Under the pieces are notes generated by a model. That model was given only the letters and a program-made list of their open reading frames with translations. It made no database searches and had not been told where the DNA came from. From a virus (Duplodnaviria; Heunggongvirae; Uroviricota; Caudoviricetes), in IMG/VR virus record IMGVR_UViG_2529292906_000019, positions 1 through 44,062 of that record: a stretch of DNA of 44,062 nucleotides; one strand, given 5' to 3'. The translations under genes were made by a program, and so were the position numbers. Shown piece by piece: positions 1,064-43,485 of this stretch (position 1 is its first letter; each line of letters begins with the position of its first letter).

Positions 1064-1093
1064 AGATAAAAAGAGACCGAACACGATTCCTGT
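1064..1093. repeat. prophage attachment site attL (tail-gene side)
   Basis: AGATAAAAAGAGACCGAACACGATTCCTGT matches 43456..43485 with one mismatch (C vs T); it is a copy of the sdsR 3' end but lacks the second arm of the sdsR terminator hairpin. Confidence 0.6.
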
Positions 1094-1364
1094 TTACAAC
1101 GCAAAACGAAATAACTTCTAAACTTCAACAAGTTAACACCAAAAACCCACTAAATAACACCTCCTGATACTTACTATTGCAATCATTGAAGATCAATCAG
1201 TTGCCATTGGTTTCGTGGCGCCGTCGGGAAATCTTCGGGATCAAAACTCCAGGACAGAAATTTCTATGGCACGCCATTACGCATGCCATCTGTAATGTGA
1301 AAAATCAGGTGGCAGAGCTAATGCAACCAATATGATTGCTCGCGCCCCATTCTATCAAAGGTTC

Positions 1365-1673
1365 CTATGCTGTTGCTTTAGTGACTTTCCCTTCCGCATA
1401 TTTCCAGCCACCAAAAATATCCGCCCCATCGGGCAGAACTGCGACTTCCGCAACACTATGCGAGGCTGGCCAAAGCGTGGTCACATCTGTTGCAATTGAC
1501 CGGACAACACCATCTTTGTCATACATTATCTTGATAGTGTCTTCGCTAAATAATTTCTGCGATGTGTACCACTCGCGTCCCTCTGAGTCTCTCAAAATCA
1601 GTGCGCCAAACCCCGCCAGCGCTTTCTCATCATCAGTTTCTGCAGATGACATAATAAAATTTTTCATATCCAT
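1365..1673 (-). CDS. tail fiber assembly protein, shorter than usual (C-terminal half apparently missing)
   Basis: 102 aa from an ATG that overlaps the tail-fiber stop (TGATG); the motif ...DTIKIMYDKDGVVRSIATDVTTLWP...GGWKY resembles the N-terminal half of lambda/Mu-type Tfa proteins; the ORF track shows a longer 110-aa ORF 1365..1697. Confidence 0.5.
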   Translation of the reverse strand: MDMKNFIMSSAETDDEKALAGFGALILRDSEGREWYTSQKLFSEDTIKIMYDKDGVVRSIATDVTTLWPASHSVAEVAVLPDGADIFGGWKYAEGKVTKATA

Positions 1674-2248
1674 CATGATAAACCTACCGTTACCCATTGT
1701 GTGCCAATAAGCATTTGAAGCGGACGAGCGTTTACAGTCTGCGCACCCGCTGTGAATGTAATACCCCGGATTAATAAGCCGGTATCGATAGAAATAAAGT
1801 TTGGGGTCGTCGTTCCTATGGTCGATACCGAGCCTTCCCTAAGTTTGATAACTCCTTTTGCTGACTCAGCAACGGTGACAGAGATATCTGCATCTGCCCC
1901 TCCGTTAAACATCGCATAGCCGTTAGCATCACCTGATACAGAAATTTTCCGCGCAGTAGTCAATGTGGCCACAGAATTAGGTGGATTCCTGCTCGTATAA
2001 ACTTCAGTCCAATTGCTTTCTGTTGTACCACTACGATTTTTAATGAAAATTCTCGGGTTATCAGTTCCGTTAAGGCTAAGCGCTATTCGCGAAGAATAGA
2101 AACTTGTCCCAGCAAAGTTGATATGAACATAATTCTGGTTTGGCTCAGGGTTTCCGGCATCACCGATGGGTAGCGTATAAACATTAGTAATGTCAGTGTT
2201 TGCAGAGGTGGCACCAACTCCGCCAAATCCGAATGCGCCAACCAACAT
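1673..2248 (-). CDS. tail fiber protein, C-terminal distal/receptor-binding part (out of frame with the N-terminal part)
   Basis: 191-aa ORF rich in G/T/S/N, typical of fibre tips; its frame is open upstream to 2293 and joins the N-terminal frame if the A7 run at 2289..2295 were A8. Confidence 0.55.
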   Translation of the reverse strand: MLVGAFGFGGVGATSANTDITNVYTLPIGDAGNPEPNQNYVHINFAGTSFYSSRIALSLNGTDNPRIFIKNRSGTTESNWTEVYTSRNPPNSVATLTTARKISVSGDANGYAMFNGGADADISVTVAESAKGVIKLREGSVSTIGTTTPNFISIDTGLLIRGITFTAGAQTVNARPLQMLIGTQWVTVGLS

Positions 2249-2745
2249 GAGAGCGCCTGTTGTGCTATCAATAACAGATGCCTGAGCATTTTTTTAGCAG
2301 CAGTACCGACTCCCAGATAATTTAACATGGAATCAGCGCTATCTCTTGCCAGTAAACTTCTGGCCGCCCCAGTAAAATCAGCAAGGGCAGCAACATCCGC
2401 ACCTGTAAAATATGGAAGTTTGTTAGCTGAACCTGTAAGAGCAGCCAAGGTAGTCAAAGTGGCATCGAGTGGCTGGGAGGTTTTATTCATCGCTACAATC
2501 AGCTTTGTTACCAGTCCTGCTACGTTGCCGTCATCAAGCACATCATTGCCGCCCTTATCACAAATAAACTGGGCCAGAGCCGAAGCAATAAATGTTGCCT
2601 GTCTAACCGCCTTGTTCACTTCTTTGGAACTGGCCTTTCCGGAAGAAAATCCCGTGGATAGTGCCGCCAGTGCGAGGTATTCTGCTTGAGTTAATACATT
2701 CGCTCCACCAGCTGCGGCAAAAGGTTTAATATCATTAGTTGGCAT
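2083..2745 (-). CDS. tail fiber protein, N-terminal baseplate-proximal part (frame runs into non-protein-like sequence after the A7 run)
   Basis: N-terminus MPTNDIKPFAAAGGANVLTQAEYLALAA... resembles conserved tail-fibre N-termini; after ...LNYLGVGTAAKK (codons over 2289..2295) the translation becomes hydrophobic and unconserved until the stop at 2083. Confidence 0.55.
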   Translation of the reverse strand: MPTNDIKPFAAAGGANVLTQAEYLALAALSTGFSSGKASSKEVNKAVRQATFIASALAQFICDKGGNDVLDDGNVAGLVTKLIVAMNKTSQPLDATLTTLAALTGSANKLPYFTGADVAALADFTGAARSLLARDSADSMLNYLGVGTAAKKMLRHLLLIAQQALSCWLAHSDLAELVPPLQTLTLLMFIRYPSVMPETLSQTRIMFISTLLGQVSILRE

Positions 2746-2747
2746 TG

Positions 2748-41763: not shown

Positions 41764-41992
41764 CCGTGGAAATCAGCAATCCCCATTAGCGCGCCAGGCA
41801 TGCGACATCGCACTGGCTACCCACCAGCAACGCTACGGCGACTACGGGCGTAGCAAGATGAAAGAGACGTACACGGTGAGAGTTGAAGGCGTGAAGGTCT
41901 GGGTAGAAGTAGTGAACCGCAAGGCCAGCTACGTGGCCACGGCGATGACAGGTATGCGCCGGCTGCGCGCACTGCCGGGTCAGGTTTCTTGA
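41750..41992 (+). CDS. small protein (unknown) upstream of xis
   Basis: ~80-aa ORF overlapping the previous stop. Confidence 0.3.
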   Translation: MRLINRGNQQSPLARQACDIALATHQQRYGDYGRSKMKETYTVRVEGVKVWVEVVNRKASYVATAMTGMRRLRALPGQVS

Positions 41993-42055
41993 TAACGATA
42001 TTTCATTAACAGTTTTCCGGCAGCTCTATAATGAGTTGCCGGATCCGGAGGTAGT

Positions 42056-42328
42056 ATGGCCAAGCTTCTTAATCTGCAGGAATGGGCGAATTCGACTTAT
42101 TCAACCCCGCCGTCTCTTTCAACACTTCGCCGCTGGGCGCGGGAGGGGCGCATTTACCCTGCTCCGGAACTTCACGGAAAAGAATATAAGGTTCAGCCTG
42201 ACGCCATCTATGTGGATCCGAGCAAAAAGAACCTTCGTCCCAAATCAAAACGCTTAGCGCTGCCAACTGGCGGCACTCTACTGGAGAGACTGACTCATGG
42301 CGAAAAGGCCAGTACGTTACGACGCTAA
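42056..42328 (+). CDS. xis: excisionase (lambda Xis-like)
   Basis: LNLQEWANS...PPSLSTLRRWAREGRIYPAPELHGKEY parallels lambda Xis LTLQEW...RPRSLETVRRWVRECRIFPPPVKDGREY; precedes int with overlap. Confidence 0.65.
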   Translation: MAKLLNLQEWANSTYSTPPSLSTLRRWAREGRIYPAPELHGKEYKVQPDAIYVDPSKKNLRPKSKRLALPTGGTLLERLTHGEKASTLRR

Positions 42329-43382
42329 CCTGCCCCGTAACCTGACCTATCGTAAAAGAGACAGGCTTTATAGCTGGCGAAACCCGATTACCGGTCAAGA
42401 ATTATCTCTTGGCCGGATCGACAGAAAGGACGCCATTTCTCAGGCCATCGAGGCCAACAACTACATCGACCAAAATTACCTTCCGTCAGCGCTGCTTGAC
42501 CGCATAAAGGAAACACCAACATTTACGGTGAAAGCGTGGCTCGAGCGCTACGAAGTAATTCTTGAGCGAAGAGAATTGAAGCCCAACACGATGAAGGTCA
42601 GGCGCAATCAGATCGCCACTATCAGTGATGAATTCGGACGTATGCCGCTATCGGCGGTCAGCACAAAGGACGTATCTACTTTCCTGGAGAGTTACATACT
42701 CTGCGATAAGAAGAGCATGGCCTCTGGCCTGCGATCGGTATTGTTGGATATTTTCAGGGAGGCGATCGTCGAGGGACATATTGAAAGGAACCCGGCAGAG
42801 CCGACAAGAACGCCGACACCAAAAGTGAAGCGTGAGCGTCTTTTGCTCGAGCAGTTTGAGATAATAAGGGATGCCGCAACTGCTCATTCTGGATGGGCTG
42901 CAAATGCATGTGACCTGGCGCTGGTCACCGGGCAGAGAAGAGAGGACGTATCGCTGTTCAGATTCAGCGATATCAGGGATGGAAGATTGTTTGTCACACA
43001 GGAAAAGACAGGTCACAAATTGGCGTTGCCACTTGATTTGCGACTGGACTCTGCTGATTTGGTATTGCAGGATGTTATCGACCGTTGTCGTAAAAACAAC
43101 CCGTCAGACTTCATGCTTTATTCTGCGGTAAGGCGTGGTGGCCGGAAGCCAGGTCCGTTAACTCCGGACGGAATCACCCAAGCATTTTCTGATATCAGGG
43201 ATTCTACAGAGTTAAAGTTTGGCCCCAACCCTCCCCCGTTCCATGAGATCAGGAGCTTGGCGAGCAGGCTCTATGAAAGGGAGCGCGGAGAGGATTTCGC
43301 ACAGAGACTGCTGGGGCATAAAAATTTAACAATGACCAAAAAATACCTGGACGCACGCGGTGCAGAATATGTTATGGTTTAG
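42297..43382 (+). CDS. int: site-specific integrase (tyrosine recombinase, lambda Int family)
   Basis: 361 aa; C-terminal catalytic region ...HEIRSLASRLYERERG...RLLGHKNLTMTKKYLDARG (conserved R, H-x-x-R and Y); adjacent to attR. Confidence 0.85.
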   Translation: MAKRPVRYDANLPRNLTYRKRDRLYSWRNPITGQELSLGRIDRKDAISQAIEANNYIDQNYLPSALLDRIKETPTFTVKAWLERYEVILERRELKPNTMKVRRNQIATISDEFGRMPLSAVSTKDVSTFLESYILCDKKSMASGLRSVLLDIFREAIVEGHIERNPAEPTRTPTPKVKRERLLLEQFEIIRDAATAHSGWAANACDLALVTGQRREDVSLFRFSDIRDGRLFVTQEKTGHKLALPLDLRLDSADLVLQDVIDRCRKNNPSDFMLYSAVRRGGRKPGPLTPDGITQAFSDIRDSTELKFGPNPPPFHEIRSLASRLYERERGEDFAQRLLGHKNLTMTKKYLDARGAEYVMV

Positions 43383-43455
43383 ACAGGATATGGAAATTTC
43401 GAGTAATTTTCGTGGGATTTCGTGAAAGCACCGAAAAAACCCAATGAAAACAGAT

Positions 43456-43485
43456 AGATAAAAAGAGACCGAATACGATTCCTGT
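43456..43485. repeat. prophage attachment site attR (integrase side), within the sdsR 3' end
   Basis: AGATAAAAAGAGACCGAATACGATTCCTGT; direct repeat of 1064..1093 with one mismatch. Confidence 0.6.

Follow-up and report, generated by a model that had tools for sequence, protein, structure and literature searches.

The 44,062-nucleotide (nt) stretch of viral DNA analysed here (IMG/VR record IMGVR_UViG_2529292906_000019, positions 1 to 44,062; hereafter the window) very probably contains a full-length temperate phage of about 42.4 kb that entered an Escherichia coli chromosome by lambda-type site-specific integration into the intrinsic terminator of sdsR (ryeB), a small RNA (sRNA) gene transcribed opposite to ryeA. 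The structure of the element, its insertion, the origin of each half of the flanking repeats and the site specificity of the lineage to which its integrase (Int) belongs are observed directly in the window and its relatives.

Attachment repeats and the strand-exchange interval

A 30-bp direct repeat, identical at 29 of 30 positions, lies at 1064-1093 (with C at 1082) and 43456-43485 (with T at 43474), where the earlier note on this DNA had placed it. Exactly two matches to the pattern AGATAAAAAGAGACCGAAYACGATTCCTGT exist in the window, against an expectation of 0 (100 shuffles); no third copy was found in the whole window at up to 3 mismatches, and sequence identity breaks off sharply on either side of both copies. 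The repeat spans the U-tract of the sdsR terminator, the 3' arm of its stem, the 7-nt loop and 2 nt of the 5' arm, and its copies bracket 42.4 kb of phage DNA. The flanking host genes named in that note are likewise confirmed by tblastn, flank matches and Rfam: on one side pphA (277..933, minus strand), which encodes a protein-serine/threonine phosphatase (98.6% amino acid identity in tblastn, pphA being the annotation at the flank match throughout the E. coli genomes listed), and on the other sdsR and yebY (43721..44062, minus strand, by flank match). As a query for the empty site, the 400 bp to the left of 1064 were joined to 430 bp starting at 43456 and compared with all complete E. coli genomes (n=5426). 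Left flank, one core and right flank are contiguous in 5191 of them (95.7%), at 98-99.9% identity, and in the remaining ~235 (4.3%) the joint is split into two places; the best match, strain ECZP248, is identical at 829 of 830 bp, the sole mismatch being the C/T position. Because the joint is contiguous in so many genomes, the host is E. coli and the 42.4 kb are accessory DNA, and alignment with the uninterrupted pphA-sdsR-yebY locus upholds the proposal that a prophage is inserted at the sdsR 3' end.

Among the alternatives, the one that survives best, while still unlikely, holds that the element is a defective, fixed remnant that no longer excises; its junctions would then be fossil, and what matters would be confined to cis effects on ryeA, sdsR and pphA. 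It can point to RecE lying in two reading frames, to a tail-fibre assembly open reading frame (ORF) covering 103 of 178 profile positions, and to E. coli HCP8S3_I1, the one inspected among three other E. coli genomes whose int gene is 96% identical, where a remnant of ~13 kb truncated by IS1 is found. Against it stand both att copies, int, xis, repressor/cro, the replication genes, Q and the lysis genes, as well as the terminase, portal, capsid, sheath, tape measure and baseplate genes, all full-length in comparison with relatives; the N-terminal part of RecE is, moreover, dispensable, which also counts against a remnant.

The assignment of each repeat half to phage or host depends on the C/T position, which was read base by base in two empty sites and a handful of junctions. 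C is present at both empty sites, one K-12-like (L001) and one from the closest host relative (L002), and at 4/4 pphA-side junctions examined (the window, GZ2408P, 2014C-3050 and JNEC-KY178). T is present at the sdsR-side junction of the window, of GZ2408P, whose Int is 99.2% identical, and of JNEC-KY178, as well as in all 37 IMG/VR contigs in which the int-proximal arm motif is joined to host sdsR and in 15 lysogens of other enterobacterial species. In JNEC-KY178 a second marker (AAAAAAAG versus host AAAAAGAG) co-segregates with C/T. A contiguous attP is known from relatives, not from the window phage: in the metagenomic viral contig L016 the int 3' end is followed by arm repeats, the core with T, a second arm with three TTTCGGAC repeats and late genes, and the circular phage Tbat2_3 has the same layout with the loop CCAATCC instead of CGATTCC, a variant presumably matching the sdsR of another host. 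From the C/T segregation it is deduced that attP carries T, that the left copy keeps host sequence up to at least core position 19, and that the right copy is phage through the same position. Strand exchange is therefore confined to the last 11 bp, ACGATTCCTGT (1083..1093 and 43475..43485), essentially the terminator loop, as delimited by C/T in the window and GZ2408P and by two markers in JNEC-KY178. The left copy (1064..1093; pphA side, int-distal), with the host C at 1082, is thus the displaced original sdsR 3' end without its 5' stem arm, and the right copy (43456..43485; sdsR side) carries the phage-derived T at 43474.

The earlier note had assigned the halves the other way round, with the C-bearing left copy as the phage half and the right copy as the untouched, genuine sdsR 3' end, which would set the exchange to the left of position 19. 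Such an assignment agrees with the intuition that the copy on the functional gene is the genuine one, and the T variant is indeed the Rfam SdsR consensus; it is nonetheless very improbable, given C at the empty E. coli sites, T in the L016 attP and at 37/37 IMG/VR sdsR-side junctions, the same C-left, T-right arrangement in GZ2408P, and the co-segregating second marker of JNEC-KY178. C as the phage base was rejected on the empty sites, attP and junction bases, and the right copy is instead chimeric, phage on its left and host from the loop rightwards. The same note's suspicion that the U-tract now on sdsR is phage-derived was well founded, as attP and the related junctions carry T. That the 42 kb could be ancestral core DNA, or a non-phage island flanked by a chance short duplication, has the bare repeat and nothing else in its favour and next to no chance of being right, and was rejected on the empty sites and gene content, since 95.7% of E. 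coli genomes lack the segment and show a seamless joint in its place, and its genes are of phage type throughout.

In each of the five phage int-distal arm sequences examined, the match to attB stops at CCTGT. The two attB stem arms, GACCGAAYAC and GTATTCGGTC, are inverted repeats of each other on either side of the 7-bp loop GATTCCT (43477-43483), and the simplest inference is that these arms serve as core-type Int sites and the loop as the overlap region. In the mechanism proposed, attP carries the final ~28 nt of sdsR in copy, comprising loop, 3' stem arm and U-tract, and exchange takes place in or beside the 7-nt loop, with the flanking stem arms lending attB the dyad symmetry of a tyrosine-recombinase core.

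The integrase lineage and its sites

Next to the right repeat, as the earlier note had it, lie the excisionase gene (42056..42328, plus strand; Pfam Exc, E 7.5e-22) and the gene for a lambda/HK022-family tyrosine integrase (42297..43382, plus strand). The Pfam matches of Int (PF09003, 34.5 bits; PF22022, 38 bits; PF00589, 71 bits; all over cut-offs) cover arm-binding, core-binding and catalytic domains, and the catalytic R...HxxR...H...Y is present by inspection (TGQRRED, HEIRS, LGH, KKYLD), the residues being assigned by position. Identity is ~40% to HK022 Int, 78% to that of Tbat2_3 and 99.2% to that of GZ2408P. In the int-proximal arm, three tandem repeats (TTTCGAG, TTTCGTG, TTTCGTG; 43397..43424, plus strand; spacing 10-11 bp) are candidate arm-type Int sites; repeats of the TTTCGNG type hold their position beside int in 15 species while their surroundings drift, and also occur in the JNEC-KY178 prophage with its 50%-identical Int. 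The int-distal attP arm (1094..1364) contains a candidate arm-type site, TTTCGTG at 1211-1217, within a conserved block at about 1170-1245 that is common to the otherwise divergent GZ2408P arm, and analogous TTTCGGAC and TTTCGAG repeats are found in attP of L016 and Tbat2_3.

Int has relatives, 65-95% identical, in the representative genomes of 15 species, including members of Enterobacter, Citrobacter, Leclercia, Lelliottia, Kluyvera, Siccibacter, Silvania, Huaxiibacter, Mixta and Pantoea, and in 15/15 of these species the SdsR 3' end, located with Rfam, lies exactly 77 bp past the Int coding match, as in the window. In E. coli the lineage is rare, being present in only 5 of the 5426 genomes at blastn sensitivity. 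In the remnant in E. coli HCP8S3_I1 (L063; NZ_CM149866.1, 1.938-1.951 Mb), a related ~13-kb element at the same site, an IS1 separates the baseplate genes from a truncated RecE, and the pphA end carries acyltransferase genes; this is an example of a prophage decaying in place. Different phages also occupy the site in E. coli, namely a lambdoid phage with nleG7 and the contractile-tailed phage in JNEC-KY178, whose Int, 50% identical, has the arm-repeat layout of the window. Judged by these sequences, the hot spot is, in the cases examined, served by one broad Int family carried on varied phage bodies.

The ryeA/ryeB locus is an established integration hot spot in Salmonella (Balbontin 2008, J Bacteriol 190:4075, as summarised in PMC7380047 and PMC3603311), and to the extent of these summaries the earlier note's description of it as a known hot spot is supported. 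Moreover, ryeB is among the sRNA integration targets in a survey of Escherichia and Salmonella prophages (PMC3603311), and for Citrobacter prophages the site goes by the label "RyeB" (PMC10111431). As far as these summaries go, PhiW104 and other Salmonella enterica insertions resemble the window in having att in the last ~23-30 bp of ryeB/sdsR, inside ryeA, in the rebuilding of sdsR with replacement of the 5' part of ryeA, and in the use of one site by several unrelated elements; the window differs in its E. coli host and its phage body, and in the G.U wobble base of the E. coli attB, which marks the phage-derived half. A further difference, the E. coli-specific consequence for pphA, comes from later work (PMC6610125). 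The site is shared with the GZ2408P prophage and with Cfr111.52.RyeB-type prophages (PMC10111431), the former also resembling the window in its overall 42-kb architecture, its C/T segregation and its 99.2%-identical Int.

The likeness to lambda and HK022 lies in a three-domain Int with an arm-binding N-domain, a Xis ORF overlapping int, tandem arm-type repeats beside int (candidates in the window), a short core and long arms; however, Int identity is ~40%, the target is an sRNA terminator hairpin and not the gal-bio intergenic attB, and, unlike in lambda, no sib-like element was identified in the window phage. Integrators at the 3' ends of transfer RNA (tRNA), transfer-messenger RNA (tmRNA) and sRNA genes (Williams 2002; ryeE/cyaR; in the form cited by PMC3603311) likewise have an attP that bears the RNA-gene 3' end and restores the gene, use the stem-loop symmetry of the RNA gene as recombinase core and keep int beside the restored gene. 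By comparison with tRNA-type integration as outlined there, the target in the window is the Rho-independent terminator of a bidirectional sRNA pair, and the opposite-strand RyeA and the downstream read-through gene pphA are not restored.

Observed and predicted consequences for sdsR, ryeA and pphA

The earlier note had sdsR reconstituted by the insertion, and a full-length Rfam match together with an 11-bp terminator stem bears this out. The gene occupies 43457..43559 on the minus strand, downstream of yebY; RF00111 matches 43559..43460 over model positions 1-100 with 116.4 bits, against a gathering score of 38, and the terminator (43494..43466) has a perfect stem whose 3' arm, with the U-tract, is supplied by the phage. 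Chromosomal sdsR is now host DNA from promoter to loop and phage DNA from loop to 3' end, and remains a normal SdsR. The phage T turns a U.G wobble into a U-A pair; a strengthening of the terminator by this substitution was considered and rejected, the predicted free energy being equal (-15.4 kcal/mol) for the host and lysogen variants. In six other sdsR-side junctions (L008, L030, L042, L053, L055 and L062) phages of this Int family supply the sdsR tail variant GGUCUUUUUUUAU, with seven U, versus GGUCUCUUUUUAU in E. coli; such lysogens would produce an SdsR with a longer U-tract, and termination and Hfq binding could change.

The opposite strand is affected differently. Choi et al. mutated the ryeA -10 with the primers PM_RyeAF/R, which replace TATGGT (PMC6610125). 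This element, at 1017-1022, was left behind at the left junction with the first ~36 nt of RyeA (1017..1063, plus strand), which agrees with the interruption of RyeA expected in the earlier note; the +1 would be at about 1026-1030, judging from fragment ends and the RyeA lengths of 261-270 nt in PMC6610125. The remaining ryeA body, about nt 37-270 (~234 nt), lies without its promoter at 43456..43692 (plus strand), where it matches RF00101 (43456..43600, 178 bits) and retains its own terminator (hairpin 43655-43684, T-run 43685-43691), so that 42.4 kb now separate this body from the promoter and 5' end. The 145-nt Rfam model of RyeA starts exactly at the first att-core base (43456), hence the full score; this start probably reflects enterobacterial conservation ending at the insertion hot spot, and because of it the model is blind to the loss of the true RyeA 5' end. 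The ryeA promoter (PryeA), a sigma70 promoter, now faces the phage int-distal arm, and no plus-strand terminator for its orphaned transcript was found within ~600 nt. Between int and the ryeA terminator, folds and terminator scans likewise revealed no plus-strand terminator, and a sigma70 consensus scan, which is weak and uninformative, found no plus-strand promoter from int to the core able to replace PryeA. With PryeA at the left junction, an antisense RNA over sdsR would require read-through from int or another phage origin.

In K-12, transcription of ryeA interferes with the sdsR promoter (PsdsR) and RyeA favours the decay of SdsR; most pphA transcription starts at PsdsR and reads through the sdsR terminator (PMC6610125). 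In Salmonella, ryeA expression fell and that of ryeB rose when PhiW104 was integrated within the final 23 bp of ryeB (Balbontin 2008, by way of the summary in PMC7380047). In the window, pphA lies 42 kb from PsdsR and from an earlier-reported heat-shock promoter further upstream. Loss of RyeA made from its native promoter would relieve both the convergent interference on PsdsR and the RyeA-mediated decay of SdsR, raising SdsR, and pphA would lose its main promoter and be expressed at a lower level; more SdsR, no native RyeA and reduced pphA are thus predicted for the lysogen.

A more speculative proposal, which we consider quite unlikely, follows from the presence of anti-SdsR sequence behind int with no terminator between them. 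The int mRNA may have a RyeA-like 3' untranslated region (UTR), with which the abundant, sigmaS-dependent SdsR would pair in trans in the manner of lambda sib, leading to RNase III cleavage and, in stationary phase, to repression of Int; in the other direction, a surge of early-left transcription on induction might titrate SdsR and de-repress its targets (tolC, with mutS also reported). If true, SdsR-int pairing would tie prophage excision to the general stress response of the host. Selection of this kind would fit the invariant, terminator-free 77-bp spacing of int and sdsR in all 15 species sampled, for which simple att geometry is an equally good explanation; a search of the attP-form int 3' UTR for an RNase III hairpin like that of sib showed nothing distinctive.

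Several points weigh against the overall reading of the window as an intact lambda-type prophage with these effects on its host. The cleavage positions are bounded by the marker to 11 bp and are not exact, and C as the universal attB base of E. coli is drawn from two empty sites and four pphA-side junctions. The transcriptional consequences are all extrapolated from work on K-12 and Salmonella, and a phage promoter could stand in for PryeA. Finally, the split RecE and the short tail-fibre assembly ORF leave inducibility unproven.

The phage body and the meaning of the insertion

Genes were annotated by tblastn transfer from GZ2408P together with Pfam and PHROG scans. The closest relative is the 42.1-kb prophage at the same site in E. 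coli GZ2408P (NZ_CM172482.1, 3.413-3.455 Mb), with which most structural proteins align full-length at 66-99% identity, whereas the terminase, fibre tips, immunity, nin/accessory regions and int-distal end differ; because of these differences the genome is regarded as mosaic. No close relative was found in the phage collection (best match 13% coverage), and none of 38 IMG/VR contigs is a near-identical copy (78-95% identity, partial coverage). From its gene content the element appears to be a complete mosaic temperate prophage with lambdoid regulation and a contractile tail.

The late module (1365..22465, minus strand; tblastn with GZ2408P, PHROG) comprises genes for tail-fibre assembly, fibres, baseplate, tape measure, tube and neck, the DUF3383 sheath (11733-13226), the DUF2184 capsid (15453-16403), the portal (19027-20541), TerL (20514-21722) and TerS (21758-22465), all on the minus strand. 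TerL and TerS (20514-22465) are only ~34% identical in amino acids to those of the otherwise close GZ2408P, from which it follows that the packaging module was exchanged between mosaics. In the 1365-2745 region (minus strand), the tail-fibre assembly ORF of 110 amino acids matches positions 2-103 of its 178-position profile, and the two tail-fibre ORFs, 2083-2745 and 1673-2248, have 165 bp in common, read in different frames; the fibre tip is unlike that of the closest relative. The lysis cassette (holins, GH108 endolysin, spanin-like; tblastn) and antiterminator Q occupy 23399..26267 on the minus strand, Q itself being at 25578-26267 (Pfam Phage_antiter_Q, E 1.8e-94).

A nin/accessory region follows (26398..32662), with NinG, DUF1367, a theta homologue, an ORF-poor 1.1 kb, a plus-strand cassette and a methyltransferase. 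Scans of this region with Rfam (E<=1), NCBIfam, Pfam, PADLOC and PHROGs returned only the methyltransferase, Kil, the theta homologue and a weak MazF-like match. The homologue of the DNA polymerase III theta subunit (28844-29086, minus strand; PF06440, E 3e-29) may be set beside the host holE, only three genes past yebY, and the theta gene of Tbat2_3, which adjoins xis. The 1.1 kb at 29557-30670 have no ORF of at least 60 amino acids and no match in Rfam or NCBIfam; they contain a direct repeat of ~22 bp (CGTGCCGTAAAACACTGGCGAC) near 29977 and 30155, and a hydrophobic ORF of 27 amino acids (MADLLIKIVPPIIVIVTAIIEYVNQRP; 30248-30331, plus strand) with a hairpin behind it, an arrangement reminiscent of type I toxin loci. 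The three-gene cassette at 30689-31727 (plus strand, opposite to its neighbours) may be a toxin-antitoxin or defence moron: its third gene has a weak MazF/PemK-like match (E ~1e-4), and its first two have none in Pfam, PHROGs, NCBIfam or PADLOC. The DNA methyltransferase gene lies at 31947-32576 (minus strand; PADLOC MTase_II, E 3e-37).

Replication genes (DnaC-like and replication protein) and immunity genes are found at 32681..35670 (tblastn, Pfam), the immunity region (34429-35670) encoding YdaT, a YdaS/Cro-like protein (34980-35189, minus strand) and a CI-like repressor (35203-35670, plus strand). The early-left operon (35840..41992, plus strand) includes Kil, a septation-inhibitor homologue (36617-36925; phrog_294, E 4e-36), YdaE, RecE, RecT (39996-41051) and DUF4060, and Xis and Int are carried by the same plus-strand early operon. 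Here RecE is encoded in two frames, an Exonuc_VIII N-terminal ORF (37238-37879) and a PDDEXK C-terminal ORF (37882-39996), versus a single ORF of 1074 amino acids in GZ2408P; the split could be a frameshift, decay or a recombination scar.

With the window, what was seen in Salmonella is extended to E. coli and to a broad integrase lineage that is strictly specific for sdsR, while current understanding of such integration stays unchanged. It adds an uncharacterised mosaic phage in E. coli, an 11-bp bound on strand exchange, the constancy of the int-sdsR arrangement across genera and the inferred uncoupling of pphA; the E. coli wobble base, in addition, provides a simple sequence marker of the phage-supplied part of sdsR. 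SdsR and RyeA have been described as a toxin/antitoxin-like sRNA circuit, and SdsR, which represses tolC and for which mutS and ompD are also reported targets, touches mutation rate and drug efflux. Given this circuit, the dependence of pphA on PsdsR and the occupation of the site in about 4% of complete E. coli genomes, lysogens amount to natural mutants of the ryeA promoter and the pphA promoter, and lysogeny at sdsR could add strain-to-strain variation in stationary-phase physiology.

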